A DNA stretch of 64,000 bases from an uncultured Halobacteria archaeon (GCA_963768575.1 CAVYIJ010000001.1:273214-337213), one strand, 5' to 3'; shown: positions 30,213-64,000, counted from the stretch's first letter. The notes: a model not told the origin generated them from the sequence alone. Program-made: numbers and translations.

Positions 30213-30413
30213 GTGTCACAATCGCTTGCAGCCAAACGGAACCAGATTGGCAATTACCTCGGGCACCCGATACCCGAAAAAATCACTACCCGCAACGGCA
30301 CCTATATTTTCGATCGTATCGCGGAACATATCGACGGTGAATACCCGCTTTATCAGCTGCAGAAGGGTGAATTGCTGATTCGCCCGGGCCTGATTTACAA
30401 GCCCGAGAAATAG
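30213..30413 (+). CDS. Small conserved hypothetical protein (~66 aa)
   Basis: GTG start preceded by AGGAG ([66 protein letters not shown]). No domain recognised. The longer 95-aa ATG-initiated version (30126) is possible. Confidence 0.4.
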
Positions 30414-43877: not shown

Positions 43878-44800
43878 AATGTTACCTCCGTTCCGCTGTT
43901 CTCATTCTGGATCATGCGCTCTACAAAAAATTCGACGTGCCCGCCTGCCTGTGCCGGATATGGCCATGACATCACCTGCCTGGCCAGATTGGTCAGCGCC
44001 ATGGCAGAACGGCTACAGGGAAAGGTACTGACGACCGATGCCCGCCCGGAGATGGCCTGTACCAGGTGCAAGTCGCGTGGAATAAAACCGGTGTAAGAAA
44101 GGGCCTGTCCATGGTTGTCGGCAAACTCATTCAGGAGTTTCCTGAATGTCGCTGCGCCCTCGCGCGCATTGCCCACCATGTTTGCCAGTATCCGGAACCT
44201 GTTGATTCCGTATTCAGTGGAAAGTATTTCTATCTGCGCGATACTTTCCGTTATCGACGCGGGTTCATTGCAGACAACGACAATAATTTCTGTGGCCGCA
44301 CGGCAGAAGCTTGCGATACATTCAGAAATCCCTGTTGCGGTATCGATGACCAGCGTATCCAGCGGCTTTTCCAGCCCGCTGAATGCCCGAACCAGCCCGA
44401 TACTTTCATGGCTACCCAGTTCCGCCAGTTGCCGTGCCCCGGACGCGGCTCGCACGACCATCAGGCCATCGGTTGTCGTCATAATGGTATCTACCAGCTG
44501 GCAATTCCCGTGGACCACATCGAACAGGGTCTGGCCGGGCTCAAGGCCCAGCAGAACATCGACATTTGCCATACCGAGGTCTGCATCCAGCAACATGGTC
44601 CTGCGGCCGGTACGAGCCAGCGCATGCGCAAGGTTCACGGAAATATTCGTCTTGCCCGCGCCGTCATTGCCGCCGGTAACAGCAACGACCTGTACCGGGC
44701 CGTGCTGGATATGCTGCGCCGCATCATCAGCCTGGCCCAGTTTCACTTCAGCCAGTTTCATGTTGCTCACTAAGGCATGCCCGCTGCGTCTGTTGTCCAT
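43874..44800 (-). CDS. fleN: Flagellar number regulator FleN/FlhG (MinD-type ATPase) with non-canonical Walker A
   Basis: Strong similarity to Pseudomonas FleN (VQVVAVTGG..GKTNISVNLA..LLDADLGMANVDVLLGL). 4-nt overlap with fliA. The start is uncertain (Met at 44800 or 44761). The deviant Walker A reads GGNDGAGKT in place of the usual GGKGGVGKT. Confidence 0.88.
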   Translation of the reverse strand: MDNRRSGHALVSNMKLAEVKLGQADDAAQHIQHGPVQVVAVTGGNDGAGKTNISVNLAHALARTGRRTMLLDADLGMANVDVLLGLEPGQTLFDVVHGNCQLVDTIMTTTDGLMVVRAASGARQLAELGSHESIGLVRAFSGLEKPLDTLVIDTATGISECIASFCRAATEIIVVVCNEPASITESIAQIEILSTEYGINRFRILANMVGNAREGAATFRKLLNEFADNHGQALSYTGFIPRDLHLVQAISGRASVVSTFPCSRSAMALTNLARQVMSWPYPAQAGGHVEFFVERMIQNENSGTEVTL

Positions 44801-45009
44801 CAATAGCTGTCCCGGATTGTCGGCAGGTGATTGCCTGCTAGACAAATTGCAACATGCATACCAAACCGCACAAATAACCGTGTAAGTGTCCCGAAGGATC
44901 ACAACTTATTGTTTTAACAGGGAGTTAACAGTGCATCGCGGGAGCGGCACACAAAAGGACTTACGTCACATTTTTGACAATTCGAACGAGCTGACGGGTA
45001 TTTGACAAG

Positions 45010-47274
45010 TTATGTGATGAATTTGTCGCCCGGAGTGTCTAGCAGGCAGGCGAAACGATCATCCGGGAGAGGTTCGCTGATATGGAATCCCTGTGCGCTG
45101 TCACAGCCGAGTTGATTGAGGATATTCAGCGCCATACTGTTTTCAACGCCCTCGGCAACAACCTTGTAACCCAGGTTATGGCCGAGATCGATTATCGATC
45201 GCACAATGGCGACATCCTGCTTGTCGAAGGCAACATCCGTAACGAATGACCGGTCAACTTTCAGGGTATGGATAGGAAGACGCTTCAGGTATGAAAGCGA
45301 CGAATACCCGGTACCGAAATCATCAATAGCGATAGTAACGCCGACATCACTGAGGCTGGCAAGTAATTCAGTGGCACGGCTGATATCCTGCATTAATGTA
45401 GCCTCGGTAATCTCAATCACCAGCTGATCACCATCAACCGAAGCTTCCTGCAATGCCAGCAGGATCTTGTCCAGCAAGCGCGGGTTCTGAAAGGAGCGCG
45501 CCGAAACATTAACAGAAACCGGAATCCTGTAGCCGCTGAACGACCATTGTCGACACTGTTTCAGCGCTGTTACCAGTACCCAGTCAGTTATACTTGTAAT
45601 CATCCCGAGCTGCTCCGCAACCGGGATGATGCGTTGCGGCATTACCAAACCTTCCAGCGGGTGCATCCAGCGTAACAGTGCCTCGGCACCGGTAATCATG
45701 GACGTTTCCAGATTGACCTGCGGCTGATAGTACAACTCGAATTCGTCATTTTCCAGCGCACTGCGGATCTGGCCCGAATAGCGCAATTGCTGCGCCTGAC
45801 TTACATCATTTGCAGGATCAAAATACTGATATGGCAGACCGTTGCGCTTGGCGCGATGCATGGCACTTTCCGCGTTGGCAAGCAATGATTCTTCATTGCT
45901 GCCATCTTCCGGGAACCGGGAGATGCCAAGCGTCAGGTTGACGCAAAGCTGCTTGTTCCGACACGCGAAGGGTATGTCGAACTTGTCGATTATTTCGGTA
46001 ATTATCCTTTCCGCAGCCTCTCGGGCATTATTTACCGGCTGCAACAGAATGCCAAACCTGTCCCCGCCGAGACGCGCAAGGGAATCCGATTCCCTGACAA
46101 TGGAGCGCAAGCGTGCAGCCACATCGCACAACAGCCTGTCGCCGATATCACGGCCCAGTGTGTCGTTGTACATTTTGAACTGGTTGATATTCAGTGAAAT
46201 CACCACAACCTGGGAGCCGGGGACACGTCTCGATGCGGCTAGCGCCATGTTTAGATGATCAGACCACAAAGCCCGGTTCGGCAGTCCGGTCAGCCTGTCG
46301 GCAGTCGACAAATGTTGCAACTGCTCCCGCTCGCATATCTGGTTCTGGATATCTTCCATCATGCAATGAATCATGGATGGTTTGCCGGGCTGCCCGGTTT
46401 CCGGGTATAACGACACCCGGTACCAGTGCATGTCGTCGTGTTCCAGCGACATCCTGACATCTGCCGTAGCAATGTGGCCACTAACCGCATCCTGCCAGGC
46501 AGACATTAACAGCTGCCGGTCTTCCTCGTGCGTGTCACCCATACAGGGCAGCGGTGATTCCATGCCGTTTTCATACCTCATTTGTAATCCATAATTGGCA
46601 TAGAGAATTCTGTTGGTATTGATGTCCACACTCCACATTATCTGCGGAATCCCTGCGAGCATATCCTCCGCACAACCCAGACGACTGGCGATATGGTCGA
46701 GCGTCAGGCGGTCATCTTCATGTACCTGCCGCCAGTATCCTTCCAGCATGATCCCCATCTCACGCAGCAGTAAACGGGTTAACAAGGTATCCAGGGCGGC
46801 CCTGTGAAGAGGATTGATTTCCAGAGCAGGTAGCGTGGTGTGTATATAGTTAATCAACAGGTTATACGCCCCAATCAACCATACGGGCCGGAAATTTCTC
46901 TGTAAATGCTGCCGACCGGCATTCAGAAGCGTCTCTTCGCGATGACAGGGATTTTCTGTAACGAGACTTTCCAGCAGGTTGCCAAGCTCGGCGCGCGCAA
47001 GCTGTCCGACATCACCGCCGTCCCGCTCGTAGGCATACAGCACATCAGCGATATCAGGATTGTCGAACAGGTAGTTGTAATAGATTTCGGCAAAGCCGGC
47101 GGTTCCCGCAGCCAGCTCGTCACGGTATTGATGCAACAGTTCCAGCTCATCGTCGGACAAACGCAGAACGTAAATATACTCGCGCGGGTGAAAGCGCAGG
47201 CCCGCGTGCGCACTGTTGCACTGCCTGGCCTCCATGCCGGTCGTTTGCCCCCTGGCTGTACTCTGTTCAGTCAT
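45010..47274 (-). CDS. Globin-coupled sensor / PAS / degenerate GGDEF (GGDRF) / EAL c-di-GMP phosphodiesterase
   Basis: 754 aa. The N-terminus has the globin-coupled-sensor proximal-His motif GRQHLQRNFRPVWLIGAYNLL. A PAS-like middle follows. The GGDEF-family domain has a GGDRF signature. The EAL domain is intact: EALLRW, DDFGTGYSSLSYL, EGVE. Confidence 0.85.
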   Translation of the reverse strand: MTEQSTARGQTTGMEARQCNSAHAGLRFHPREYIYVLRLSDDELELLHQYRDELAAGTAGFAEIYYNYLFDNPDIADVLYAYERDGGDVGQLARAELGNLLESLVTENPCHREETLLNAGRQHLQRNFRPVWLIGAYNLLINYIHTTLPALEINPLHRAALDTLLTRLLLREMGIMLEGYWRQVHEDDRLTLDHIASRLGCAEDMLAGIPQIMWSVDINTNRILYANYGLQMRYENGMESPLPCMGDTHEEDRQLLMSAWQDAVSGHIATADVRMSLEHDDMHWYRVSLYPETGQPGKPSMIHCMMEDIQNQICEREQLQHLSTADRLTGLPNRALWSDHLNMALAASRRVPGSQVVVISLNINQFKMYNDTLGRDIGDRLLCDVAARLRSIVRESDSLARLGGDRFGILLQPVNNAREAAERIITEIIDKFDIPFACRNKQLCVNLTLGISRFPEDGSNEESLLANAESAMHRAKRNGLPYQYFDPANDVSQAQQLRYSGQIRSALENDEFELYYQPQVNLETSMITGAEALLRWMHPLEGLVMPQRIIPVAEQLGMITSITDWVLVTALKQCRQWSFSGYRIPVSVNVSARSFQNPRLLDKILLALQEASVDGDQLVIEITEATLMQDISRATELLASLSDVGVTIAIDDFGTGYSSLSYLKRLPIHTLKVDRSFVTDVAFDKQDVAIVRSIIDLGHNLGYKVVAEGVENSMALNILNQLGCDSAQGFHISEPLPDDRFACLLDTPGDKFIT

Positions 47275-47565
47275 TATGTTGTTGCGCTTTTGTTTATTGA
47301 CCGGTGCAGGTAACGACTGTGCGCTTCTGCCCGATCTTTATGCTGCAAACAATAAAACAACCTGAAATTCCCGTCAGGGACATTCAGGTCAGACGAACAT
47401 TCACTGGTAACCGATAATTTGCCAGTATTTTCTTGTTTAATGTATTGTTCTAATGTGCGAAAACTATCACAGTCTGCCCGGCAAATAAAGCCGGCAAACA
47501 GCAAACGAGTAATAGTTTACGAATTAACGAAATTTGGAAGGGAATTGCCTGATAGTGTTTTAACG

Positions 47566-48987
47566 TCAGGGCTGACGCTGCATACCATATTTGCGCAGCT
47601 TCTCTACCAGGGTAGTACGCCGCATGCCAAGACGTTTGGCGGCATGGGCCACGACACCGCCTGAATCAGCAAGAGCCTGCTTGATATAGCTCACCTCAAG
47701 GCAACTCAAATGCTGCTTCAGATTCATGCCCGCACGTGGCAAGCGGGGGTCCAGATCATGTGATGTTACCGGTGAACCGACAAGTGCATCGACTGCCTGC
47801 TCCGTAACATCATCAGTATTCTGGCGAAATTTTTCCGGCAAATCACCGGCATCAACAACGCCGTACGGATGCAGAATCGCCATGCGCTCGATCAGGTTCG
47901 CCAGTTCCCTGACATTTCCCGGCCAGTTGTACTGACAGAGGGCATAAATGGCCCCCGGCGACAGGCGGACCGATCCACGTTTCTCATGCTCGATGCGGCG
48001 TACCAGCTCGTTGACCAGCAGCGGTATGTCTTCAACCCGCGCGGATAGCGACGGCATTTCTATGGGAAACACATTCAACCGATAGAAAAGGTCTTCGCGG
48101 AACTCGCCCTCCTCGATCGCCGCTTCGAGATTTTTGTGCGTGGCCGCAAGAATTCGTACATCAGATTTAATACTCTGGTTGGACCCGACCCGCTCAAAGG
48201 TGCGCTCCTGCAAAATACGCAATATTTTCACCTGCATCTGCAGGCTCATATCGCCTATTTCATCAAGAAATAACGTACCGCCTTCCGCCATCTCAAAGCG
48301 ACCCTGGCGATCATTGATCGCGCCCGTAAACGCCCCCTTCTGATGGCCAAACAATTCTGACTCCAGCAGATCAGCGGGAATCGCTCCGCAATTGACCGGA
48401 ACAAATGGCTTGTCGCGGCGGGATGAATAGTAATGCAGGTTTCTTGCAATGACTTCCTTACCGGTACCCGACTCGCCAAGTATCAGGACATTTGCATCGC
48501 TGTCAGCTACTTGCTGTATGAGTTTACGCACATCCTGAATAGCACGACTGCTGCCAACAAGGCTGCGGAACAGTTCTACCGGGCGCTGATCGGATGGTGT
48601 ACTCCGGTGGGATTGCGTATAGATTTCGGCCTGGTGCAATGCGTTGGTGAGATGCGTGTAATTCGGCGGTAATTCCAGACGCCCAAGGATGCATGATCCC
48701 GGGTCAATCGTAACTGTCGGCTCCTTGCCTTTTTTACTCAGCAGGTAAATCGGCAGGTGTTCGTCGAAGTTATGTATTTCGTTCAGGAGCGTAGCAAGTG
48801 AATGATCGGACTTGCATGAACCAAGCATGACAGCCTGTAGTTGCTCACCGTCTTCGATTACCTGCTGCCAACGTGTCGTATCGTCCACCAGCACCGGGTT
48901 GGAGCCGATAAACTTCAGAACGGATTGCAGCTCTTTTCCTGCAGCTGGATCAGCTTCTAGTACAAGTACCCTGGACTCTGTTTGCAT
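47566..48987 (-). CDS. fleQ: Sigma-54-dependent flagellar master regulator FleQ
   Basis: High identity to Pseudomonas FleQ across the AAA+ domain ([32 protein letters not shown]) and the C-terminal HTH. Start set at [13 protein letters not shown]. Confidence 0.92.
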
Positions 48988-49439
48988 TCGGCTTCCTGGA
49001 CGATTTATTACCCTGGCCCCTGCGGAGCCGTAAGGCATTGAAACGTTCTTGTTAATCCCCTAGATTTGAGACGGATATTAACCAGTCCGTCAAGGTAATG
49101 TCAAAACCATCTGTGACCTGCGTTGCAAAAACTTCCGGCGTCCTCCCGCAGAATTTTACCTGTTGTAATCAAAACGATTTTCTGTTGATAAAAACCTGCA
49201 GAGCCGGGCCCCTATCAGCACGCCCGGCGAAGACAGGCGGTCGACTACAGCCGATCACCGGTCAGCCACACGCCAGGTATCCCCCGCGACACCCGCAAGT
49301 GAGAGGCGCGTGGCGGACAGACTGTCATAATTTTGCCACTTTGTGCGCGAGACCTCAAAACCGGGTTAAATCCGGTGATTGAACAGACGATATCTTAAAT
49401 GAGCCCGGCACAGACCGGAGGTAACAATGCTCAGGAATA

Positions 49440-49857: not shown

Positions 49858-49934
49858 GCCCCGGTAGCTCAGCTGGATAGAGCAAGCGCCTCCTAAGCGC
49901 TAGGTCGGACGTTCGAATCGTCTCCGGGGCACCA
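49858..49934 (+). tRNA. tRNA-Arg (anticodon CCT)
   Basis: 77 nt GCCCCGGTAGCTCAGCTGGATAGAGCAAGCGCCTCCTAAGCGCTAGGTCGGACGTTCGAATCGTCTCCGGGGCACCA; anticodon loop CTCCTAA. Confidence 0.88.
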
Positions 49935-50424
49935 ACTAATTCCCCCGACCGTACAGACGGTTCGAACGTCCGACGTTTCTATCAGCCCCGTTCGACAAGC
50001 GGCGTAAGCCGCGCAGAACGTCGTCGCGAAGCGACGGCGGCCCCGAAGGGGTGAGGCCCAAAGGGCCGAATAATCGTCTCCGGGGCACCAACTAATTCCC
50101 CCGACCGTACAGACGGTTCGAACGTCCGATGCGAGGCGCATGGCGATGCGCCGAGTAGAATCAGTCCCGTTCGACAAGCGGCTTGTCGTTCCCGCGCGTC
50201 CCTGTGCTCCACGACATAAGTACATCCCTGTACAAAAGCCGCGCACGACTGCAGGGATGCAGGAGGTAGAGCAACGCAGGGAACAGTTGCCGAGAACGTC
50301 GTCGCGAAGCGACGGCGGCCCCGAAAGGGCTCAGGGCATCATGCCCTGAGTAGTATCGAGCCCGAATAATCGTCTCCGGGGCACCAACTAATTCCCCCGA
50401 CCGTACAGACGGTCCGAACGTTTC
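49916..50424 (+). repeat. Three direct copies of a ~60-bp unit (last ~20 nt of tRNA-Arg plus ~40 nt downstream) with partly conserved hairpin-rich spacers (att-site-like scars)
   Basis: Copies at 49916-49975, 50067-50129 and 50363-50421 share CGAAT(A)ATCGTCTCCGGGGCACCAACTAATTCCCCCGACCGTACAGACGGTTCGAACGT. Spacers share GAACGTCGTCGCGAAGCGACGGCGGCCCCGAA(A)GGG and TCAG(C/T)CCCGTTCGACAAGCGGC. Confidence 0.8.
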
Positions 50425-54743: not shown

Positions 54744-55352
54744 CTAGAACGCACCTTCCGCGCCGCGTTTCATTATATCCAGTATCACGTCCTTCACCTC
54801 GTTTGCCTCGTCAAACAAATCCTGCGGCAATTTTTTACCACCATGAATCATCATGTCCATGTTGAGAGTGTAGATCCATAATTTTCCGCTCTTGTCCTCG
54901 ATCAACGATAACCTGCATGGCAGGTAGGCCGAGTAGGCATCCGAGTAGGCAACCATTTTTGCAGCTGTCAGTGGATTGCAGAACATGTAGATTTTAAGAA
55001 ATCTTTGAGGTTCACCGGTCATCGCCTCGACCTGTTCTGATAACGGTAGTTCACCGACATTCTTGATATTGTGTTCGTTGGCAACAAAACGCATTGTCTC
55101 TTCAACTTCTTCGGCGCTCAAACCATCAGCGACCGGGGTTTTCCAGACAGTCGCTTCTGCCCCGTTGCCGGTCGATATGAGCCCCTTGACCATATCGGCA
55201 TAAACCGTGGGTGCATCTTCGTCAAAGGACGACAGGTTGCCGAGGTCCTTGAAATTCTGCATTCCGAAGTCATAAGCGAAAACGATCCATATCAGCCCGG
55301 CTACAACCGCGAGCCCGACAAGCGCGAACAAATTCCAGAACAATTTGAACAT
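54744..55352 (-). CDS. Membrane-anchored DUF302-domain protein
   Basis: 202 aa with an N-terminal TM anchor (FKLFWNLFALVGLAVVAGLIWIVFA) and a C-terminal region with a DUF302-like motif (KIYMFCNPLTAAKMV...YLPCRLSLIEDKSGKLWIYTLN). Confidence 0.55.
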   Translation of the reverse strand: MFKLFWNLFALVGLAVVAGLIWIVFAYDFGMQNFKDLGNLSSFDEDAPTVYADMVKGLISTGNGAEATVWKTPVADGLSAEEVEETMRFVANEHNIKNVGELPLSEQVEAMTGEPQRFLKIYMFCNPLTAAKMVAYSDAYSAYLPCRLSLIEDKSGKLWIYTLNMDMMIHGGKKLPQDLFDEANEVKDVILDIMKRGAEGAF

Positions 55353-55378: not shown

Positions 55379-56493
55379 TTACGGGTTTTCCGGGGACGTT
55401 TCCGTGATGTACTGTTCGAGCTCCTCGGAACGGGGACTTTGCAGCCCCCTGAGGACATCAACCAGCTGCCGCGCCTGATCGACGAGGCCCTCATCGGCAA
55501 GCCGCTTGCCTGCTTCAAAATACGACGCGGAAGCGAGCGTCCACTTGCCTTGCGAGAAATACATGTTGCCGAGCTCCCCGTAACCATCCGGATTATCCGG
55601 ATCAGAAGCTATCAGGGCCTGATAATTTTTCTCGGCATTTATATAGTCCCGCAACCAGTATGCCTCGCGTGCTGCGGCGAGCAACTGGTAAGGAGTTCCA
55701 GCCGGCTTGTCGGTGGCTGCTTTTGCCGGCCGCTTGATCACAGACGCATCCACATCGGGCGCGGGCTGCGTGGCGGCTGGCGCGGTACTTTCCGGGCGGG
55801 GCACTTCTGCCGTCATCGTGGTCCCCTCAAGTGCCGGTACAGCACTACTGCCAGCTGCTGCTGTCGCTTGCGCAACACTGGCAGCGGTGCTGCTTGCCGG
55901 TTTCGACCGGCTTCCGGCAACTGCGGGGAGATCCGGCGACCCGGCCATTTCGTTTTCACGGGTTTTAGTCACGGCAGCCGGATCCTCATCCGCGGAAACC
56001 TTGTCGACCGTCGTAATTGGTGGTGTAACTTTCACCGCATCGCCAATTTGTCGGGCAACCGGTTCAGGTATGCTGTCTGCAGCATCGGTATCTTCTGCAA
56101 CAGCCGCTTTATCATTCGTCGCCGGGGCCGTCGGTTCTGTAGCTGCCGTACTTGCCGCTGGCTGCACACTGGTTTTATCGTCCGCATCCGGTGCGGCGCC
56201 AGGCTGTGGCTCACCTGCGTCGACCGGCCGATTTCTGCAACCGGCGCCTCCCCTGCATCCATTTCCTGCGCCTGCATGGAGGACTGGACAGGCTGTTCGC
56301 CACTTGCCGCATCACTTGCCGTATCACTATCACTGTCTGTACTGCTTTCAAACACCAGGAATTCGGGCAGTTCCAGGTCAGGAAACAGATCGCCCCGATA
56401 GATCAAGCCAAGAGCCAGTATCGCAACCACGACCAGTGCAAAGCCATGACTTAGAATTCGTGCAAAAAGATTCATAACAAATACTCCTGCCAA
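55379..56493 (-). CDS. TM-anchored protein with acidic Ser/Asp-rich and Ala/Pro/Thr-rich disordered regions and C-terminal TPR repeats; apparent 1-nt frameshift near 56225-56235
   Basis: The N-terminal piece 56032..56493 (TM helix then ESSTDSDSDTASDAAS...) and the C-terminal piece 55379..56167 (low-complexity then TPR: AYWLRDYINAEKNYQALIASDPDNPDGYGELGNMYFSQGKW) are in frames offset by 1. The C-terminal frame stays open upstream to 56312 and reads plausible low-complexity sequence. Confidence 0.6.
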
Positions 56494-56495
56494 TA

Positions 56496-57158
56496 TTAGT
56501 TCTGATTACCGGCAACATGCGGGTAAAGCGTGGCCGCAAATTCCCCGAATTCTTCAGCCGCCTTGCCACTCGGCCACATCTCGAAAACTGCCAGGCCTTC
56601 GCTGAGCGAGCGCCTGAAACCGGTCCTCATACGTAACCGCTGCGACATCACAACATCGATGCCTTTCAGCATTTTCAAGGCCTCTTCAGTTTCTTTCGTT
56701 TCGCGAATTGATTTGTTGGTATCCGCGCGGTTTACAAATGCGATCGTGCGTTGCTTGCCATTGAGTTTAACAGCTTCCGTATCGGGACCTATGATATGCA
56801 GGAATCGCTGGGTTGCCCAGACATCTGCCTGGCTCGGTGGTACCGGCACCAGGACCCGGTCGGCGGATGTCAGGGCCTCTTTCATAGCGGCCATATTTGC
56901 CGCCCCGACATCGACCAGTACCTCGCAGTCAGTATGAGACAGCAGCTGGTCCCTGAGAACCGCACGAACGGAATGTATCTTCAGCTGCGGATTGTTACCG
57001 ATTTCCTTTCGCAACATGGCCAGGTCACTGAACGTGCACTGCGGATCAAGATCATACCCGACTACCCTGCAACCGTGTTTTTCAAGCCAGATCGCAAGAT
57101 TGAACGCGATTGTGCTCTTGCCGGAGCCGCCCTTCAGGTTTGCAATTACCGTAATCAT
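56496..57158 (-). CDS. Orphan ParA/MinD-family ATPase (deviant Walker A KGGSGKST)
   Basis: 220-aa ORF MITVIANLKGGSGKSTIAFNLAIWLEKHGCRVVGYDLDPQ... No parB-like partner or parS visible. Stop abuts the start of the TPR protein gene. Confidence 0.85.
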   Translation of the reverse strand: MITVIANLKGGSGKSTIAFNLAIWLEKHGCRVVGYDLDPQCTFSDLAMLRKEIGNNPQLKIHSVRAVLRDQLLSHTDCEVLVDVGAANMAAMKEALTSADRVLVPVPPSQADVWATQRFLHIIGPDTEAVKLNGKQRTIAFVNRADTNKSIRETKETEEALKMLKGIDVVMSQRLRMRTGFRRSLSEGLAVFEMWPSGKAAEEFGEFAATLYPHVAGNQN

Positions 57159-57246
57159 ATTACATCGCTCTGACTATCAAGGCTCTGATTCAATGATCGC
57201 ATGTACCAGAATTATTGTGGAACACCTGCCCGGGTGACTGGCCGGA

Positions 57247-57292
57247 AAAGTAAAAATGAGCCAGAACACATCTCTGTGCCTGGCTCATTGGT
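57247..57292 (-). terminator. Rho-independent terminator downstream of the Gly/Tyr-rich protein gene
   Basis: 10-bp stem AATGAGCCAG/CTGGCTCATT (57256-57290), followed on the minus strand by TTTTACTTTT. Confidence 0.55.
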
Positions 57293-57304: not shown

Positions 57305-57730
57305 TTACTGTGCGGCTGCCGGTGCTGCCGGTGCAACCGGTGCTGCCGGTGCATACCCGTAAGGTGCGCCGCCATAACCGGGATAGCCGCCATAGCCGCC
57401 ATAGCCGCCAGGATAGCCGCCATAGCCGCCAGGATAGCCGCCATAGCCGTACGGGCCGCCGTAGCCGCCGCCATAGTAGTCGCCATAACCACGACCATAG
57501 CCACGACCATAACCCCGGCCACGACCGCTGCCGCTACCGCTCATGTTGAAGCCGAAATCGCCGTCCATGAAGCCGTCGCCCCAGCCGTCGCCAATGCCAC
57601 TTCCATAGCCATCGTTGTAGCCACGGTTGCCCCAGGGGCCCCAGTTACCCCAAGCCTGGGCCGCAGAAAACGGCACTGCCATGAGTGTGGCCACAGCAGC
57701 GGCACAAAGTGATTTTTTGATAATACTCAT
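57305..57730 (-). CDS. Secreted glycine/tyrosine-rich low-complexity protein (sulfur-globule-protein-like)
   Basis: Signal peptide MSIIKKSLCAAAVATLMAVPFSAAQA. The rest of the 141-aa ORF is almost entirely GY/GW/GR repeats (AWGNWGPWGNRGYNDGYGSG...GRGYGRGYGRGYG...GGYPGGYGGYPGGYGGYGGYPGYGGAPYGY), encoded by 21-bp DNA repeats. Confidence 0.75.
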   Translation of the reverse strand: MSIIKKSLCAAAVATLMAVPFSAAQAWGNWGPWGNRGYNDGYGSGIGDGWGDGFMDGDFGFNMSGSGSGRGRGYGRGYGRGYGDYYGGGYGGPYGYGGYPGGYGGYPGGYGGYGGYPGYGGAPYGYAPAAPVAPAAPAAAQ

Positions 57731-57865
57731 TTCGATATCTCCTTATTGTTTAAGCAGAACTACAAATAGTTCCGCACATACTCCCCGAAACCTATTCCAA
57801 CCAACAATAACAGGGAGTGATTATTGTCGACCTAACAACCTGGCTAACAGGTCATTAAATTCATT

Positions 57866-58468
57866 TCACCAGCCAGGACCCGGAAAAATGCCAGGGACAC
57901 CCCAGCCAGGAGTGCCGTAACCGGGAGCATACCCCTGGTTAGCGTACCATTCCGGCTGTAACTGCCAGACTGGCTGCGACGGTTGCCGGCGTGACGGCCG
58001 ATTGCCGTTATCCATGGCTCCCCAGGGCCTGCGCGTCACTGGTTTCCCGGCCTTGCCCGGCTCTGCAGCGGCGTATTCCGGCGCCTGCTGAACTTGCCAG
58101 GGCGAGTACATCTGGCTCGGGGAGCTGGCTGGTTTACTTTCAATTTCTCGCTTGAAGGTTCCCGGTGTTTGAGTAGCGGCACTCCATGGACGACCCTGCT
58201 CTTCGGTCCGCTGCTGATTGAAGTTGTATAAATAATCTGGAGGAATTCCCGGCCTGCCGAAACCTGAAGTTTGCCCTGACTGTTTTGGCGTTGGATACCA
58301 CTCCTTGACCGTGACGGGTTTGGACACTGCGGGTATCCCGGTATTGACAGACGAATCCGCACCGGTCTCGTCTTTTGCACAAGCGCCGGCAGTCACCAAC
58401 ACAGTGACCAACAATAGTTTGAGGAACAATGAAATATCAACATGTACTGCATACGGCCTCATGATCAA
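57866..58468 (-). CDS. Secreted (possibly lipo-) Pro/Gly/Trp/Tyr-rich low-complexity protein
   Basis: 200-aa ORF. Hydrophobic N-terminus ending ..LVTAGACAKDE, a possible lipobox. Pro/Gln/Trp-rich body with a C-terminal YAPGYGTPGWGVPGIFPGPGW. Confidence 0.6.
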   Translation of the reverse strand: MIMRPYAVHVDISLFLKLLLVTVLVTAGACAKDETGADSSVNTGIPAVSKPVTVKEWYPTPKQSGQTSGFGRPGIPPDYLYNFNQQRTEEQGRPWSAATQTPGTFKREIESKPASSPSQMYSPWQVQQAPEYAAAEPGKAGKPVTRRPWGAMDNGNRPSRRQPSQPVWQLQPEWYANQGYAPGYGTPGWGVPGIFPGPGW

Positions 58469-58497
58469 CTTGATGCCTGCATTTCCTCCCTGACGAA

Positions 58498-60051
58498 TCA
58501 GGGCGCCGGATACGCGCCACGGCCATAAGGTGATTGCTCCTCGTAGGCGGGTGACGGTACTTCTTCTTCCGGTCTGTTTGCGGGGCCGCGATAATATCCA
58601 AACGGCGGCATGTTCATGTAGCCCGGCGTCCCGGGTTGCCTTGACTGCCAGGCAGGCCCCGGGTAATTAAACCCGGCGGCCGGTGGCATCATTCGATCGT
58701 ACTGACCGGGCACCGGTGGCTGCATCGCAGGCGGTGGTGCGGGCCGGCGATCGTCCGTACCGGCGGCCGGGGGCATCATGCGATCGTACTGACCGGGCGC
58801 CGGTGGTTGCATGGCAGTCGGTGGCGCGGGCCGGCGATCGTCCGTACCGGCGGCCGGGGGCATCATGCGATCGTACTGACCGGGCGCCGGTGGCTGCATG
58901 GCAGGCGGTGGTTCAGGCCGGCGATCGTCTGCTATGCCGGCTGCGGGGGGCATCATGCGATCGTACTGACCGGGCGCCGGTGGCTGCATCGCAGGCGGTG
59001 GTTCAGGCCGGCGATCGTCTGCTATGCCGGCTGCGGGGGGCATCATGCGATCGTACTGGCCGGGCACCGGTGGCTGCATGGCAGGCGGTGGTTCAGGCCG
59101 GCGATCGTCTGCTATGCCGGCTGCGGGGGGCATCATGCGATCGTACTGACCGGGCGCCGGTGGTTGCATGGCAGGCGGTGGTTCAGGCCGGCGATCGTCT
59201 GTTATGCCAGCTGCGGGGGGCATCATGCGATCGTACTGACCGGGCACCGGTGGCTGCATGGCAGTCGGTGGCGCGGGCCGGCGATCGTCTGTACCGGCGG
59301 CCGGGGGCATCATTTTGTCAAAGTGCCCCGGACCAGCGGGCGGCTGCCCGGTAGCCGTGATTGCAGGTGGCGAGACAGTGCCGGTTACTGTCTGTTCGCC
59401 GGCTGACATTTGGTCGATCATAGGTTTGGCGCTGTCCGGTTGCGATGCTTCTACCGTGGTAACGGCTGATAATGGCTGTTCCTTTACGGCCGCGTCAGCC
59501 GGCAGCCCGCTTTCCACACCCGCCACCGGCGAGGCAGGTATTTCGTCTGCGGCGAGGTCTTTCGCCTGCTGCTGCCCATCTTCAGTGCCGGACAGCCGTG
59601 CTTCATCCGCCATGGAATCCACAGCAATGTCAGACTTCGCGCCCGCCACCGGCGGTGCAGACAAATTGTCTGCGGCGAGGTCTTCTCCCTCTTGCGGCAC
59701 ATCTTCAGCGCCGGACAGCCGCGTTTCATCCGCCCTGGTATCCACAGCAATGTCAGCCTCTGCGTCCGCTACCGACGGTGTGTCATGCACTTGTTCAGTG
59801 GCGTCGGGATCCTGCTGTGTTTCCGCATCAACAACGTTGGTAATCGGTGGTGTAACCCCCTGTCCCGGCACACGCGGATCGATATGCACAGGCTGGTAGG
59901 GGCCGGACGGTGGCGGCGCAGACACTACGGACCATTCTTTTGAATAGGAATAACCCGGCCCTGATTCAGCAACAAGACTGCATGGCAGCGCCGCAGTCAT
60001 CACTACCAGCAAGAAATTACCAATTGACATTATTGGAGACTGAATGGTCAT
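58498..60051 (-). CDS. Secreted acidic protein with ~8 tandem 30-aa Pro/Met-rich repeats (PGQYDRMMPPAAGIADDRRPEPPPAMQPPA)
   Basis: 517-aa ORF: a signal peptide (MSIGNFLLVVMTAALPCSLVAES), an acidic Asp/Ala/Glu-rich region, then near-identical 30-aa repeats encoded by 90-bp DNA repeats at ~58680-59340, and a Tyr/Gly/Pro-rich C-terminus. Confidence 0.75.
   Translation of the reverse strand: MTIQSPIMSIGNFLLVVMTAALPCSLVAESGPGYSYSKEWSVVSAPPPSGPYQPVHIDPRVPGQGVTPPITNVVDAETQQDPDATEQVHDTPSVADAEADIAVDTRADETRLSGAEDVPQEGEDLAADNLSAPPVAGAKSDIAVDSMADEARLSGTEDGQQQAKDLAADEIPASPVAGVESGLPADAAVKEQPLSAVTTVEASQPDSAKPMIDQMSAGEQTVTGTVSPPAITATGQPPAGPGHFDKMMPPAAGTDDRRPAPPTAMQPPVPGQYDRMMPPAAGITDDRRPEPPPAMQPPAPGQYDRMMPPAAGIADDRRPEPPPAMQPPVPGQYDRMMPPAAGIADDRRPEPPPAMQPPAPGQYDRMMPPAAGIADDRRPEPPPAMQPPAPGQYDRMMPPAAGTDDRRPAPPTAMQPPAPGQYDRMMPPAAGTDDRRPAPPPAMQPPVPGQYDRMMPPAAGFNYPGPAWQSRQPGTPGYMNMPPFGYYRGPANRPEEEVPSPAYEEQSPYGRGAYPAP
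58680..59340. repeat. Tandem 90-bp coding repeats (about 7 copies)
   Basis: CATCATGCGATCGTACTG recurs at 58771, 58861, 58951, 59041, 59131 and 59221 (period 90), with degenerate flanking copies at ~58686 and ~59306. Confidence 0.85.
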
Positions 60052-60098: not shown

Positions 60099-63000
60099 CT
60101 AGGTCAGATCCTGTTTCAGGCGAATTCCGCGTCGCTTTCTGCCGACTATATCAGTCGCATCATCAACGCTTTCATCACTGTCTTGCGTTTCCGTTTCTAT
60201 AACATCCATTTCCTCGACCGGGGTCGGCGCCATGTCCGGCGTCGGGGACGATGCACTGGTGGAGTCCATTGCCACCTGCTGTGGCGTTGATGACTCCTTG
60301 TCGTTGCCAGTCTTCGCTACTTCCCTCGGCGGGGGCGTGCCGCCTTTAGTGGCTGTCGCCGGTGTTTCCCTTGGCGGGGGCGTGCCGCCTTTAGTGGCTG
60401 TCGCCGGTGTTTCCCTTGGCGGAGGCGTGCCGCCGTGCTGGCGGGTCCTCGCGGTGGCTGTCGCCGGTGTTTCCCTTGGCGGGGGCGTGCCTCCTGCGGT
60501 GGCTGTTGCAGGCACTTCCCTCGGCGGGGGCGTACCCCCGGACGGTGGCTTCTCTCTTGGCGGCGGCGGAGTGCCCCCGGACGGTGGCTTCTCCCTTGGC
60601 GGCGGCGGAGTACCGCCACCACGTGGCGGGGGTGGCGTACCACCACCCGGCGCTGGCGCTCTCGGTGGCGGCGGAGTACCACCACCACCGCCGAACTTGC
60701 CGGCGATCCCCTTGAAGCCCATGCCAATCAGGGTAAATACCGCCTTGATCACGATGAAGATCCAGCTGAAGAAAGTAAATATCCCGCCCCAGAGTCGCAT
60801 CAGCAGCGGCGTGCCCGGTGCGCCGGGGGCAGCGTCAGGCTCAGGCTCAATATGTTCAATCCTCTGGTAGGCGGAGCTGATTGAAACGGTACCGTCATCA
60901 GAAGTTTCCACGTAAAACTGTTTCTTCGCACTGATACAGCCCAGTGGAATAATCAGCAGTGCCATGACAGTCGCCACACCGGTGCCGAACATCAGGCTTA
61001 TTGCCATGCCGTTGAAAATGGGATCCTGGATAATGGCAAAGGCGCCCGCCATCAGGGTAAGCGAGGTAATGAAAATCGGGCGCATACGCAGTTCCGCACC
61101 CCTGACAGCGGCCTCGGTGACCTCGTGGCCTTGCGCGACCTCGAGTTTCACGAACTCGACAATCAGGATCGACTGTCGAACGATAATGCCGCCCAGCGCG
61201 ATCATGCCGATCATGGAGGTTGCGGTGAACTCTGCACCCATGATCCAGTGACCCGGAATGATCCCCATCATGGTGACTGGAATCGGTGACATGATCAGAC
61301 CGGCCAATGCAAAATTCTTGAACTCCCAGACGATCAGGCCGTAGATCAGCACCAGCGCGGCCATGAAGGCGCCGCCCATATCACGGAACGTTTCGTAGGT
61401 AACGGTCCACTCGCCGGTCCACTCGTAGCCAGAACTGGTCGAGTCGGCACGGGTGCCGATGAATGTCCATTCGCCGGGTTTGCCCAGGATCGTCTTGGGC
61501 ATGGTTTCCAATTTCACGCCATCCGGGGCCGTGTATTCCTCCACCAGGTCCTCGATATGGAGCATGCCGTATATCGGCGCACCCAGGCGGCCTTCCATTT
61601 CACCGACCACATATTCGATATCGCGCAGGTCCTTGGTATAGAGGACTGGCTCCACATACCCTTTCTTGAATTGGCCGAGTTCAGACAGCGGAATGGTCCT
61701 GCCATCCGCGGTCGGAATCGGCAGGTCACCCAGCCGCGAAATCTGTGAACGCACCGCCAGCGGGATCTGCATGACGATGTAGGTCGGCTCAAGCACCGTT
61801 CCCCGCTTGATATCACCCAGTTTAAAACTACCCATGGCCATGGCCAGGCTGCCGTTGACCGTATCCACCGAGATTCCGCGACGCACCGCTTTTTCGGTAT
61901 CAACCTCGAACCGCCAGAACTCATAAGGGTCTGCCATGTATGTGTCGACATCGACCACATTCTCGACCTGTTCGAACATGGCCATCAAATCACCAGCCAC
62001 CTGGCGACGCGTTTCCGCATCGGGACCATACACTTCTGCGACAAGCGTCTGCAGCACCGGTGGTCCGGGCGGCATCTCGACCACGGCAATGCGGGCACCC
62101 ATGCTGTCAGCGATTGGCTTGAGAAGATGCCGGGCAACAACAGCAATTTCATGGCTGCCGCGGTCACGGTCGTTCTTGTCAGTCAGCATGACAAGCAGGT
62201 CACCTTCCCACGGCCGCTGTCGCAGGTAGTAATGCCTGACCATTCCATTGAAGTTGAACGGCTGGGCGGTACCGGCATAGGTGGTCACCGCAGTCACTTC
62301 GGGAATCTGGCGTACGGCCTCAGCCAGCGCCAGGGTGACATTCGCGGTATCCGGCATCGCCGTGCCTTCCGGCATGTTGACGATAACCGTGAATTCCGGC
62401 TTGTTGTCGAACGGCAGCATCTTGACCGGCACGTGCTGGGTATAGAATGTCACGCACAGCAGCGCCGTCATACCGATGATACCGAACAGGAACAGCAGGC
62501 CCAGCTTGCGGTTCTCGACCAGCGGCATGATGATCGGTCGATACATGCGACTGATGCGCGCGTGAATTTTCTTTTCTTTCTCTTCCGCTTTCTTCAATGC
62601 CGCGAAACGCGGCGCGACCTTTACTGCAAACCAGGGCGTAAACACGAACGCTGCAATCAGCGAGAAGAACATCGCCGAGGAACCCAGCACCGGGATCGGC
62701 CGCATGTACGGTCCCATGAGACCGCTGACCCAGCCCATCGGCAGGAGTGCGGCGATAATCGTAAAGGTCGCCAGGATGGTCGGGTTACCCACCTCGCGGA
62801 CCGCATCGATGGCCACCGCGACACTGGTCTTGCCCTTCATTAACCAGTGCCTGAAGATATTCTCCACCACCACGGTCGCGTCATCGACCAGGATACCGAT
62901 GGAGAAAATGAGCGCGAACAGGCTGACGCGGTCGATGGTGTAATCCACCATCATGGCCCACCAGATGGTCAGCAGGATCACGACCGGGATAACCGTGATA

Positions 63001-64000
63001 ACCACGAAGGCGGCACGCAAGCCGAGACCGACCAGGCAGAGAAGCGACACGATCACCGCCGCCTCCATCATGGCGCCGAGCAGCTCATTCACCTTGTCGT
63101 TGGCGGTCTTGCCGTAATCACGGGTCACCGTCACGTTGACATTGGCCGGTATCAGGCCGGCTCTCCCTTTCAGGTCTTCGACCTTGGCCAGTATCGCCTT
63201 GGCCACTTCGACACCGTTGGTGCCTTCCTTTTTGGCGATGGCAACGGTAACAGCGGATTCCCCCTCGGCCTTTCCGGTGTCACCGGTGTAGGCGGGCCCG
63301 GTGAAAAACGTGACCAGTTGATGCGGCTCGGCGGATTCCTGCGATACCTTTGCCACGTCACGGACATAGACCGGCGCATCGTTGCGGATGCCGATGACCA
63401 GGCGCCCGATTTCCTTGGCGGTTGTCAGGAAAGACCCGGTCCTGACCGAGAAAGACGTGCCGCTGGATTCGACATCACCCGCTGATTTTTCGGCATTCGC
63501 GGTCTGGATGGTCTGTGCGACCTGCTGCATGCTGATGCCATACCCGGACAGGCGTTCGGGCATGACCTCGACCTTGACCTGGTCTTCCCGGCCACCGACG
63601 ATGAAGCCCTTGCCGACATTTTTCACCCCGCCCAGACGTTGCAGCAGGTCGAGCGCAAGCATGCGCAGCGAGCCGTCATCGACATCCGGGGACCAGAGCG
63701 TGAGCGTCACCACGGGGACATCATCGACGCCAACCGGTTTTACCAGCGGCTGCGAGACATTCGGCGGAATCTTGTCCATGTTGGACTGGAGCTTGTCATG
63801 CACCTTGACAAGGGATTCACCCATGTCTTCGCCAACCACGAAGCGTACAGTCACCATTGCCTTGCCGCGTTCTGTCGCTGTATATGTATGGCGGACACCG
63901 GGAATTTCGAGCAGCAGGCGCTCCAGCGGCTCGGTCACCAGGCTGGAAACCTGTTCAGCCGAAGCACCCTCGTAGCTGGACGAATACGTCGATCATCGGC
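60099..64000 (-). CDS. RND-superfamily efflux transporter (AcrB-like 12-TM core, 5' end beyond window) with an extra C-terminal TM helix and ~200-aa Pro-rich repeat tail
   Basis: RND motifs (ILVDDATVVVENIFRH; IVRQSILIVEFVKLEVAQG) and two large periplasmic loops. After TM12 comes a further hydrophobic segment LLMRLWGGIFTFFSWIFIVIKAVFTLIGMGF, then ~10 GGTPPPPR(E)/TPATATKGGTPPPRE repeats and an acidic tail. The N-terminus is off-window; the first in-window residues align to roughly AcrB residue ~60. Confidence 0.85.
60290..60720. repeat. Tandem ~42-bp coding repeats in the RND C-terminal tail
   Basis: Reiterated GGCTGTCGCCGGTGTTTCCCTTGGCGGGGGCGTGCCGCCTTTAGT and variants on the plus strand, encoding the GGTPPPPRE.. 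repeats. Confidence 0.8.

Follow-up and report, generated by a model that had tools for sequence, protein, structure and literature searches.

Which structure do three adjacent genes for secreted, repetitive proteins build, and do the genes around them take part in building it? The question is raised by a locus in a 64-kb stretch of DNA, analyzed as a whole and called the window here, in which a sequence-only reading had noted three consecutive ORFs for such proteins, the first likened to sulfur globule proteins. The ORFs lie exactly where that reading placed them (Table 1), with ORF 1, ORF 2, and ORF 3 encoding 141, 200, and 517 aa on the minus strand. The signal peptides assigned to all three were also recovered, as one N-terminal hydrophobic segment per protein, though they were called by eye and from hydropathy rather than by a dedicated predictor. 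The extreme composition held for ORF 1 and ORF 3, with entropies of 3.34 and 3.74 bits against 4.0-4.1 bits for housekeeping proteins of the window, but not for ORF 2, which is ordinary at 4.04 bits.

Table 1. Positions of the features discussed, in window coordinates
Feature	Position	Strand	Evidence
Dynamin-like GTPase, 512 aa	52989..54527	-	Pfam Dynamin_N E=2.4e-15, 57.4 bits vs cut-off 27
Membrane-anchored DUF302 protein	54744..55352	-	Pfam DUF302 E=2.8e-12
Membrane-anchored TPR protein	55379..56493	-	Pfam TPR_11, TPR_16
ParA/ParF-type deviant Walker-A ATPase, 220 aa, KGGSGKST	56496..57158	-	Pfam CbiA, AAA_31, MipZ
Intrinsic terminator 3' of sgp	57243..57289	-	Hairpin at about 57255-57289, then AUUUUUACUUUU
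ORF 1, sgp, putative 141-aa SgpA/B-family sulfur globule protein	57305..57730	-	PF17228 match
ORF 2, putative 200-aa lipoprotein, orphan family	57866..58468	-	Alignment A2, invariant lipobox
ORF 3, putative 517-aa secreted scaffold protein	58498..60051	-	Alignment A3; 29/29 complete gammaproteobacterial loci
90-bp x 7.2 tandem repeat in ORF 3, 30-aa Pro/Met-rich units	58673..59313	-	Tandem Repeats Finder: 92% matches, score 987
RND permease (AcrB type)	60099..63938	-	Pfam ACR_tran E=5.6e-129
RND tail C-terminal RKRRGIRLKQDLT motif	60102..60140	-	Conserved across orthologues

A sulfur globule family protein and two companions

ORF 1 matches the sulphur globule protein family PF17228 with 42.1 bits, well above the gathering score of 26.7 (E=1.7e-10), over profile positions 2-92 of 93. 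The suspected Sgp resemblance thus goes beyond composition, and judged by this profile search ORF 1 is a true member of the family. PF17228 is likewise found in most of its 78 database relatives. The protein runs from a W/G-rich N-terminus through a GDGFMDGDFGFNMSGSGSGRGRGYGRGYGRGYG core and a GY/P-rich region to an APAAPAAAQ tail. In alignment A1, which sets ORF 1 beside cluster-linked and dsr-linked SGPs, the core (GDGxGDFxFxMSGxGSGRGYGRGYG) is common to ORF 1 and a homologue, P0050, encoded directly 3' of genes that match dsrKLJOPNRS in Pfam content and order. A putative cleavable Sec signal peptide is indicated by the basic n-region (KK), the hydrophobic stretch of residues 8-26, and a predicted cleavage site at AQA|W; the Ala-x-Ala-Trp junction is invariant throughout A1. 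Overall the protein contains 31.9% G, 13.5% Y, and 12.8% A; cleavage at AQA|W would leave 115 aa of 11.4 kDa with 39% G and 16.5% Y, which fits the family in repetitiveness, Gly/Tyr content, and mature size (about 10-13 kDa). AlphaFold2 found no structure except the signal-peptide helix (mean pLDDT 48.5), and ORF 1 is predicted to be disordered, as expected of a coat or condensate protein. Because sgp has its own ribosome-binding site (AAGGAG, 8 nt upstream of the ATG) and a strong terminator, it is transcriptionally separable. The terminator hairpin folds at -24.3 kcal/mol (z = -4.96, matched by 0/200 shuffles); a simple terminator scan did not pick it up, and it was found by sequence reading and folding.

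In these respects ORF 1 is like SgpA and SgpB of Allochromatium vinosum: it matches PF17228 end to end, has a Sec-type signal peptide and Gly/Tyr-rich repeats, and would weigh about 11 kDa when mature. For SgpA/B/C, 11-13 kDa has been published, and the Allochromatium sgp genes are also monocistronic (PMC10386293). The likeness was drawn through the family model, without direct pairwise comparison to the A. vinosum sequences. Unlike the stand-alone sgpA and sgpB genes, ORF 1 is embedded in a conserved multi-gene module, and its host, a gammaproteobacterium not yet cultured, has no verified sulfur metabolism.

The possible lipobox reported for ORF 2 proved real, as Ala29-Cys30 is invariant, in the context (L/V/I)x(S/T/G/V)AC, among the 17 family members of alignment A2. 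With a hydrophobic segment at residues 12-30, ORF 2 has the lipobox Cys ending the signal peptide that marks a putative bacterial lipoprotein. The lipobox (..AC(A/T)KDE) and the motifs EWYPTPK and RRPWG are invariant and separated by variable Pro/Gly/Gln-rich linkers, and the C-terminal Trp is nearly so (consensus PGYVW; PGPGW in ORF 2 here). The protein (P 13%, G 10.5%, Q 7.5%) is probably disordered. It has no match in Pfam or NCBIfam, and its family is small, with only 10 relatives in a word-indexed search and no more than 23 representatives (E<=1e-3) in a set of 1.84 billion proteins.

ORF 3 also lacks a match in Pfam. It has the N-terminal motif YSYSKEW..VSAPPPSGPYQPVHIDPRVPG and contains the invariant motif VSAPPPxGPY..DPRVPG and a hypervariable middle; in alignment A3 of its relatives W40, VSAPPP, GP, DPR, and PG are invariant, and the middle differs by 0-350 aa. 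In the C-terminal G/Y/P tail, GY is nearly invariant and the P..P..Y of the EEEVPSPAY segment fully so. The description of an acidic domain followed by about eight Pro/Met-rich repeats was accurate: the acidic block (residues 66-235, net charge -27) includes a 41-aa x 2 repeat, and D(R/K)MMPPAAG occurs 8 times in a protein that is 20% P and 14% A. A second repeat, with a 123-bp unit in 2.1 copies, lies at 59519-59780 (Tandem Repeats Finder). Copy number varies between strains, the relative on metagenome contig L001 having about two repeat units fewer (451 aa vs 517 aa).

ORFs 2 and 3 may be compared with SgpC (Alvin_1325) and SgpD (Alvin_2515) by analogy only, no sequence relationship having been shown; Pfam and NCBIfam hold no model for SgpC or SgpD. 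Like these, they are additional Sec-exported proteins, and they are repetitive, Pro-rich, and encoded beside an SGP gene. SgpD is repetitive, with regularly spaced prolines and internal repeats, and by BLAST occurs almost only in Chromatiaceae (PMC10386293). It is much shorter than ORF 3, its second predicted helix ending at residue 142. ORF 2 differs from both in being a putative lipoprotein and ORF 3 in the length range of its relatives (188-517 aa) and their hypervariable middle.

A conserved module around the trio

Using ParA as synteny anchor, we retrieved 66 loci. The module that emerges consists of genes for an MFP, an RND pump, the three secreted proteins, in some loci a DUF4412 protein, and then ParA, TPR, DUF302, and dynamin-like GTPase proteins; here the genes lie on one strand with intergenic gaps of 2-216 nt, a compact, operon-like arrangement. 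RND, trio, ParA, TPR, DUF302, and dynamin-like genes occur together in about 45 gammaproteobacterial MAGs. Where the RND-to-ParA interval is complete in this class (n=29), relatives of ORF 3 and of ORF 2 are each present in 29/29 loci, SGP in 26/29, and DUF4412 in 19/29, with nothing else conserved between pump and ParA. Most of the module is also found in Thiolinea disciformis and in Alphaproteobacteria, including Magnetovibrio blakemorei, where positional equivalents are present; across other lineages (n=18 loci) SGP was found in 12/18 and positional equivalents of ORF 2 and ORF 3 in 11/18 each. HMMs built from the gammaproteobacterial ORF 2 and ORF 3 relatives did not detect the alphaproteobacterial proteins at the same positions, so that only position, short motifs, and composition speak for equivalence there. 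The Cys is missing from most alphaproteobacterial equivalents of ORF 2 and present in the M. blakemorei one.

The module is not uniform, since parts are missing from the T. disciformis locus (no SGP, ORF 2, DUF4412, or DUF302 relatives) and from a Competibacteraceae group (L046-L049; no DUF302 or dynamin-like gene). One locus, L038, has the DUF4412, ParA, TPR, DUF302, and dynamin-like part without the pump, and the group L062-L065 encodes secreted proteins that are rich in G/P/W but escape the SGP HMM. The features conserved specifically in the cluster are the RRGIRLK tail motif, the TPR N-terminus, and the dynamin-like TM hairpin. Conserved synteny strongly supports the earlier suggestion of dedicated machinery around the trio, the function itself being inferred. 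The companion claim, that Sgp genes are dispersed and their co-localization undescribed, is largely right: among other SGP-family genes inspected, five stand alone and one is dsr-linked, and our literature search found no paper describing such a sulfur globule protein gene cluster. One partial precedent exists, as A. vinosum sgpD adjoins a gene for a hydrophobe/amphiphile (RND-type) exporter (PMC10386293), much as ORF 3 adjoins an RND-type exporter gene. With most SGP-family genes elsewhere standing alone, globules can evidently be made without the module.

The RND gene extends past the window end, with an apparent frameshift near 63975 relative to locus L003. It encodes an AcrB-type 12-TM permease, served by a periplasmic adaptor (a HlyD-type MFP gene lies upstream in related loci), and in NCBIfam the multidrug-type RND model outscores the CzcA type. 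The module conserves no gene for an outer-membrane factor or channel, nor any other for secretion at the outer membrane. Past TM12 follow an extra hydrophobic segment (60705-60794), which leaves the membrane side of the tail uncertain, and a Pro-rich tail from 60689 downwards, encoded partly by 45-bp and 39-bp repeats at 60321-60627; these tail features are seen in about 45 loci. A (K/R)RRGIRLK sequence lies at or near the C-terminus of nearly all gamma- and alphaproteobacterial orthologues despite a core identity of only about 55-60%, and is a candidate docking peptide, a role that is inferred.

The ATPase exceeds the Pfam scores required (CbiA 53.9 bits vs 25.4; AAA_31 47 vs 27), has TP228 ParF/ParA and Soj as nearest solved sequences, and partially matches NCBIfam BcsQ. 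At 123 bits it falls under the ParA_partition cut-off of 180, which makes it a ParA-family member and not a canonical partition ParA. The TPR protein is predicted from hydropathy and charge to have an N-in single TM, an acidic Ala/Pro-rich linker, and a periplasmic C-terminal TPR domain; its N-terminus, MNLFARILSHGFA..YRGELFP, is conserved across loci. A 1-nt deletion near 56226 splits the gene here, and its L001 counterpart is one 365-aa gene. The DUF302 protein, found in 45 loci, has an N-in TM and a domain predicted to be periplasmic. By its Pfam match the dynamin-like protein has a putative dynamin-type G domain, with EHD2/EHD4 G domains as nearest solved sequences (E about 4e-6) and 5088 relatives at E<=1e-10. 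Residues 338-356 and 381-399 form a TM hairpin with a Trp-rich periplasmic loop, and the C-terminal tail is basic. Its AlphaFold2 model (mean pLDDT 59.8; G domain 30-40) is confident only at helices 276-359 and 378-417.

A proposed role in sulfur globule assembly

We propose, at a confidence that is evenly balanced between acceptance and doubt, that the trio coats sulfur globules in the periplasm or forms their protein matrix, and that it belongs to a self-contained module, about eleven genes in size, for building, shaping, and positioning the globules. Once in the periplasm, the G/Y/W/P/R-rich exported proteins would self-assemble on zero-valent sulfur, which is hydrophobic. The lipoprotein and the TPR protein may tether the coat to membranes: C-terminal peptides are common ligands of TPR domains, and Trp is the last residue of ORF 2 relatives and of some SGP paralogues. 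The RND-MFP pump would supply the forming globule with a hydrophobic substrate, be it sulfur, polysulfane, or a capping lipid, and the dynamin-like GTPase would remodel the inner membrane around the growing inclusion. ParA would space and partition assembly sites via a basic peptide, either the RRGIRLK of the RND tail or, in the TPR protein whose gene directly follows parA, the short N-terminal segment on the cytoplasmic side. For the pump, ParA, TPR, DUF302, and dynamin-like proteins, these roles are deduced from family and topology and have no experimental support.

Partners of ParA/MinD ATPases generally dock via short basic peptides (bioRxiv 10.1101/2025.05.22.655647). As in McdAB of carboxysomes and ParF-ParG of TP228, a gene for a small ParF-like deviant Walker-A ATPase lies beside presumed cargo genes, and the module offers conserved short basic peptides as docking sites, as ParA positioning systems do. 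In contrast to those systems, the presumed cargo is periplasmic, so that ParA coupling would have to pass through inner-membrane proteins, and the stronger candidate docking peptide is C-terminal rather than N-terminal; no ParB- or McdB-like soluble partner gene was found among the module genes. The GTPase resembles BDLP, DynA, LeoA, and EHD/atlastin-type GTPases in its Dynamin_N G domain, long helical region, and membrane-inserting hairpin, and differs from known dynamin-like proteins in its length of only 512 aa, its true two-helix TM hairpin with a Trp-rich loop in the periplasm, and its basic tail. Like a magnetosome island, the module gathers structural, transport, and cytoskeleton-like genes for a single inclusion in a compact set and is laterally distributed; unlike one, it shows no mam homology, and its inclusion would be periplasmic. 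Several module carriers are magnetotactic.

Magnetovibrio blakemorei MV-1 uses sulfide or thiosulfate, and its locus (L057) carries an SGP gene (Pfam E=9e-11). It is called a chemolithoautotroph in the title of Bazylinski 2004, as cited in PMC4169400. PMC10386293 names Thiolinea disciformis among sgp carriers and magnetotactic sulfur oxidizers among intracellular globule formers. Apart from the cluster, the window holds housekeeping genes only. Neither the window nor the flanks retrieved for related loci carry a sox, dsr, or sqr gene; what remains of the 428-kb contig and of the genome was outside our scope. Sulfur oxidation by the host organism is thus unproven, as sulfur genes are absent from window and flanks and the rest of the genome is unread.

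Alternative explanations

That the trio are not genes, only frames left open by chance in repetitive DNA of high GC content, has next to no probability, for all that alternative-frame ORFs overlap the repeats and the assembly carries indels. Trio relatives in unchanged order in 29/29 related gammaproteobacterial loci mean that they are not chance ORFs; motifs, order, and lengths are conserved at the protein level in dozens of genomes, ORF 1 scores above the Pfam threshold, and the independent contig L001 (98.8% identical) bears the same genes. The conservation data rule this reading out. A harder question is whether the coat surrounds sulfur at all. The module could build a periplasmic or envelope proteinaceous body or condensate for other cargo (stored lipid, say, or a different hydrophobic or mineral deposit), with SGP reused as a generic coat. 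Globule formation is not known from some hosts (Competibacteraceae, Hyphomicrobiales, and Rhodobacteraceae MAGs), and the absence of sulfur genes from every flank, a pump of multidrug/hydrophobe type belonging to no sulfur-specific family, and the G/P/W-rich proteins of L062-L065 all fit such a body. We nevertheless find it unlikely, as documented PF17228 members are sulfur globule proteins, one ORF 1 relative lies directly behind a dsr operon, and the two cultured carriers are the chemolithoautotrophic sulfur oxidizer MV-1 and the listed sgp carrier T. disciformis.

We give similarly little credence to a split in which globules involve ORF 1 alone, or at most the trio, and the pump, ParA, TPR, DUF302, and dynamin-like genes make up an unrelated envelope system that is linked to it by chance, for example a ParA/BcsQ-like ATPase organizing a secretion or efflux machine. 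ParA-family ATPases are also secretion-system subunits, as the partial BcsQ match recalls, and separability can be argued both from the transcription signals of sgp and from loci that lose SGP and keep the remainder (3/29 gammaproteobacterial loci and T. disciformis) or, as in L038, have the DUF4412-to-dynamin-like part without the pump. Yet the order pump-ORF 3-ORF 2-SGP-ParA is kept in two proteobacterial classes at low pump identity, which is hard to explain without shared function, and the pump-to-ParA interval conserves nothing else. A surface destination, with the trio exported to serve in adhesion or to form a sheath or biofilm matrix of curli-like or glycine-rich cell-wall-like material, and with RND-MFP in the export route, seems to us very improbable. 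Low-complexity Gly/Tyr/Pro-rich secreted proteins do adjoin an efflux pump here, and comparisons of Sgp proteins with keratins and with the cell-wall proteins of plants have been made (PMC10386293); against this, the module conserves no outer-membrane route, and SGP family membership indicates the periplasm. We also know of no RND pump that exports Sec-delivered proteins of this size.

In the reading that we prefer, a globule coat encoded within a globule-building module, the cluster is a concrete candidate for the machinery by which sulfur storage globules would be built and placed.

Three consecutive secreted proteins

The sequence-only reading had placed three consecutive secreted proteins of extreme composition at this locus, and its positions were matched exactly by three consecutive ORFs on the minus strand. 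Each carries one N-terminal hydrophobic segment resembling an export signal, in line with the signal peptides that had been claimed, and on this hydropathy evidence all three are judged to be exported. The description of their composition held for ORF 1 (Gly 32%, Tyr 13.5%; mature form of 115 aa and 11.4 kDa, Gly 39%) and for ORF 3 (Pro 20%, Ala 14%), which contains an acidic block with a net charge of -27 and eight D(R/K)MMPPAAG units, but it was overstated for ORF 2, a Pro/Gly/Gln-rich protein whose sequence entropy of 4.04 bits is at the level of housekeeping proteins.

Features of the secreted-protein locus and its neighbors (positions within the window)
Feature	Position	Strand	Length or copies	Remarks
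ORF 1	57305-57730	minus	141 aa	
ORF 2	57866-58468	minus	200 aa	
ORF 3	58498-60051	minus	517 aa	
90-bp tandem repeat	58673-59313		7.2 copies	92% matches; within ORF 3
123-bp repeat	59519-59780		2.1 copies	DNA level
RND permease, AcrB-type				before ORFs 1-3; additional hydrophobic segment beyond TM12; Pro-rich tail (about 200 aa) with end RKRRGIRLKQDLT
ParA ATPase, small, ParF-like		same as ORFs 1-3		after ORFs 1-3
TPR protein		same as ORFs 1-3		after ParA
DUF302 protein		same as ORFs 1-3		after TPR gene
Dynamin-like GTPase		same as ORFs 1-3	512 aa	after DUF302 gene

ORF 1 belongs to the sulfur globule protein family

The resemblance of ORF 1 to sulfur globule proteins was borne out by profile search: the protein matched the whole of the Pfam sulphur globule protein (SGP) model PF17228 at 42.1 bits, above the curated cut-off of 26.7. 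The same model was found in most of the 78 ORF 1 relatives in a large protein collection, one of which bears the NCBI name "sulfur globule family protein." In the family alignment, a signal peptide end of the form A-x-A|W is followed by a Trp/Gly-rich stretch, a core (GDGxGDFxFxMSGxGSGRGYGRGYG), a GY/P-rich stretch, APYGY, and an APAAPA tail. The core aligns with that of P0050, an SGP of the same architecture whose gene lies 3' of eight genes with the sizes, order, and Pfam content of dsrK, L, J, O, P, N, R, and S. These profile and alignment matches add ORF 1 to the known Sgp family as a new member. The AlphaFold2 model of ORF 1 is unstructured apart from the signal helix (mean pLDDT 48.5), and the gene has the ribosome-binding site AAGGAG and a terminator with a strong hairpin (-24.3 kcal/mol, z = -4.96).

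SGP-family genes were also observed in other settings. On two microbial-mat metagenome contigs (L072, 1-10492, and L073), such a gene lies directly 3' of a dsrKLJOPNRS-type gene string, an arrangement that ties the family directly, at the genomic level, to sulfur-globule oxidation. Another lies on a plasmid-like contig (L076, 10001-10351) that also encodes Rep3, ParA, resolvases, and a number of toxin-antitoxin pairs, which suggests that mobility is possible for sgp genes. In some relatives, two SGP paralogues lie in tandem (8123-8533 and 8667-9074 in locus L011; 8191-8547 and 8677-9069 in locus L015), and the first of them ends in GPGW or GSGW; the same terminal Trp is seen in the ORF 2 family, which hints at a putative shared C-terminal recognition signal.

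ORFs 2 and 3 represent orphan families

As far as homology searches can tell, ORFs 2 and 3 are lineage-restricted orphan families. ORF 2 had no match in Pfam or NCBIfam; a word-indexed search returned only 10 relatives and a profile search 23 representatives among 1.84 billion proteins. The lipobox that had been raised as a possibility was upheld by the family alignment, in which its Ala-Cys is invariant, as are EWYP.P and RRPWG, and the C-terminal Trp is nearly so; we read ORF 2 as a putative lipoprotein tether carrying short linear motifs. Among ORF 3 relatives, the N-terminal motif W..VSAPPP.GP....DPR.PG is invariant and GY/PPPP.Y elements are conserved at the C-terminus, with a middle part that ranges from almost nothing up to about 350 residues. 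Repeat number is polymorphic even between near-identical strains: a 98.8%-identical contig from another metagenome (L001) encodes a protein of 451 aa with about two fewer repeat units, indicating that the repeats evolve quickly. HMMs of the gammaproteobacterial ORF 2 and ORF 3 families detected no alphaproteobacterial member and the reverse direction likewise failed, so equivalence across the two classes is positional and motif-based only. A YhhA RiPP identity for ORF 3 was dismissed as a compositional match (22.6 bits vs 36), as was a prion octapeptide match of a protein from the Magnetovibrio blakemorei MV-1 locus.

Conservation of the module

With the ParA protein as synteny anchor, 66 loci were recovered from one-genome-per-species bacterial and archaeal genomes. 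Examination by tblastn and ORF inspection revealed a shared order of a 131-aa protein, an HlyD-type adaptor, the RND pump, ORF 3- and ORF 2-type proteins, one or two SGP genes, a DUF4412 protein (absent from the window), ParA, TPR, DUF302, and dynamin-like proteins. Using locally built HMMs, we found relatives of both ORF 3 and ORF 2 in all 29 gammaproteobacterial loci with a complete pump-to-ParA interval, SGP genes in 26/29, and DUF4412 genes in 19/29. Other lineages (Competibacteraceae, Magnetovibrio, Magnetospira, Thalassospiraceae, Rhodospirillaceae, Hyphomicrobiales, Rhodobacteraceae, and Thiolinea disciformis) contributed 18 loci, of which 12 have SGP genes, 11 have ORF 2 types, and 11 have ORF 3 types; the M. 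blakemorei MV-1 SGP is recognized by the Pfam model (E=9e-11). The T. disciformis locus is without SGP, ORF 2, DUF4412, and DUF302 relatives, and the Competibacteraceae group is without DUF302 and dynamin-like genes. The pump terminus (K/R)RRGIRLK is kept in nearly all lineages, at a core identity of only 55-60%, and the TPR protein is best conserved in its N-terminus and TM segment. Judged by gene order and HMM matches, the module is conserved, as are the families of ORFs 1-3.

In a deep-branching "uncultured proteobacterium" group (L062-L065, 7400-9200), the pump, ParA, and TPR genes are kept beside different G/P/W-rich secreted proteins with GSPWGG repeats, which neither the SGP HMM nor Pfam matched; the pump tail there keeps RGIRLK without the extra hydrophobic segment. 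For the 131-aa protein encoded 5' of the adaptor gene in the related loci, our guess was an SCP2-like identity, and Pfam, NCBIfam-style, and PDB sequence searches matched nothing.

Neighboring genes and the rest of the window

ORFs 1-3 and the genes neighboring them share one strand and are separated by 2-216 nt. From hydropathy and charge, the TPR and DUF302 domains are predicted to be periplasmic, each with an N-terminal anchor, and the dynamin-like GTPase to be cytoplasmic and held in the membrane by a hairpin of two helices whose periplasmic loop is Trp-rich. The structure model of the latter was poor and its input alignment shallow (68-84% identity), and all 120 relatives among the matches listed in the homology search were close ones. 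The Pro-rich tail of the RND permease is encoded by 45-bp and 39-bp tandem repeats (60321-60627; GGTPPPPRE(K/T)P units).

The remaining window is housekeeping in character (clpXP, tig, folD, cysS, trp, leu, asd, FimV, secDF, tgt, queA, flagellar regulators, and relA). A flagellar regulatory block (43149-49038) lies a few kilobases from the module and encodes a FliA sigma factor, a FleN/MinD-like ATPase, a GGDEF-EAL protein, and a FleQ-type sigma-54 activator; the window therefore holds two ATPases of the ParA/MinD family, which differ in role.

Several irregularities were also noted. Relative to L001, a 1-nt deletion near 56226 splits the TPR gene into ORFs of 153 and 262 aa, and the RND gene shifts reading frame close to the 5' end (about 63975) in comparison with the related locus L003. 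Apparent frameshifts were also noted at 3545-4660, 24540-25370, 10648-11283, and 28961-30253; several housekeeping ORFs (trigger factor, isopropylmalate dehydrogenase, DUF455, and chorismate synthase) give Pfam matches that are partial at one end. These observations suggest an indel-prone, perhaps long-read, assembly rather than pseudogenes. Within 49858-50421, three copies of about 60 nt (49910, 50066, and 50362; 92-100% identical) repeat the 3' portion of tRNA-Arg(cct) together with the sequence that follows it, and two further short direct repeats are interspersed among them; the pattern resembles stacked remnants of attachment sites or a small array of repeats 3' of the tRNA. Two related contigs, CAWKAE010000001.1 and JABDRC010000264.1, are labelled "Halobacteria archaeon" yet carry the bacterial module and relA, with proteins 80-90% identical to those of the window, and one member of the ClpX 90%-cluster also bears this label; the two bins are probably misassigned.

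Discussion

Sulfur globules are a classic bacterial inclusion. To our knowledge, their only known components so far are the coat proteins SgpA-D, and we know of nothing established about globule nucleation, sizing, membrane wrapping, spacing, or inheritance.

The sequence-only reading had inferred an extracytoplasmic proteinaceous structure with dedicated biogenesis machinery, an interpretation supported by the family membership of ORF 1 and by the conserved module. We propose that ORFs 1-3 would coat periplasmic sulfur globules or make up their matrix, with the pump supplying hydrophobic material to the globule, the lipoprotein and TPR protein tethering the coat to membranes, the dynamin-like GTPase shaping the inner membrane, and ParA spacing assembly sites through a basic peptide. 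Partners of ParA/MinD ATPases generally dock via short basic peptides, as discussed in work on McdAB (bioRxiv 10.1101/2025.05.22.655647). All of these roles are inferred and the sulfur metabolism of the host is unverified, and we give the proposal about an even chance of being correct.

Other explanations have to be set beside that support. The same machinery may serve a different cargo: no sulfur-oxidation genes were found in the 64-kb window, and dsr relatives, sought with the L072 dsr proteins, were found neither there nor in the related loci, though their absence says little because the flanks are short. Alternatively, despite the recurrent gene order, sgp may be linked only fortuitously to an unrelated envelope system; we consider each of these two accounts unlikely. 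That the exported proteins build a surface matrix seems quite improbable, and the idea that the ORFs are not genes at all is effectively refuted.

Coat proteins SgpA, SgpB, SgpC, and SgpD are encoded in separate transcription units, with sgpD adjoining a gene for a hydrophobe/amphiphile exporter, and SgpD has repeats and regularly spaced prolines (PMC10386293). The claim that such co-localization is undescribed and that Sgp genes are dispersed largely stands: targeted literature searches turned up no paper in which sgp genes are associated with clusters of the ParA, dynamin-like, DUF302, or RND kind, papers naming both globules and dynamins made no such link, and SGP-family genes outside the module are mostly solitary. 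The module as a whole appears to be undescribed. Alvin_1738/1739 of A. vinosum ("cobyrinic acid a,c-diamide synthase"), which share their regulation with dsr and sgpD, were rejected as orthologues because their NifB/X-like and MinD-like cluster differs in make-up.

Extending the coat-and-machinery proposal, we tentatively suggest a laterally mobile sulfur-globule organelle module, in which a cytoplasmic ParA would space and partition a periplasmic inclusion via inner-membrane adaptors, possibly the disordered RND tail with its RRGIRLK end or the N-terminus of the TPR protein, while the dynamin-like GTPase, through its membrane anchor, would shape the inner membrane that surrounds the inclusion. 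This remains possible but doubtful. If true, it would represent the first genetic machinery described for sulfur globule biogenesis and inheritance, as well as the first ParA system with its cargo on the other side of a membrane, and would extend ParA-type positioning and bacterial dynamins to periplasmic cargo.

In conclusion, the locus offers a defined candidate gene set for globule biogenesis that is conserved in two proteobacterial classes and environmentally abundant, with more than 5000 close metagenomic relatives of the dynamin-like protein alone. As the module is present in the cultured M. blakemorei MV-1, the question is directly testable, and its secreted proteins provide a natural example of fast-evolving disordered scaffolds joined by short conserved motifs.
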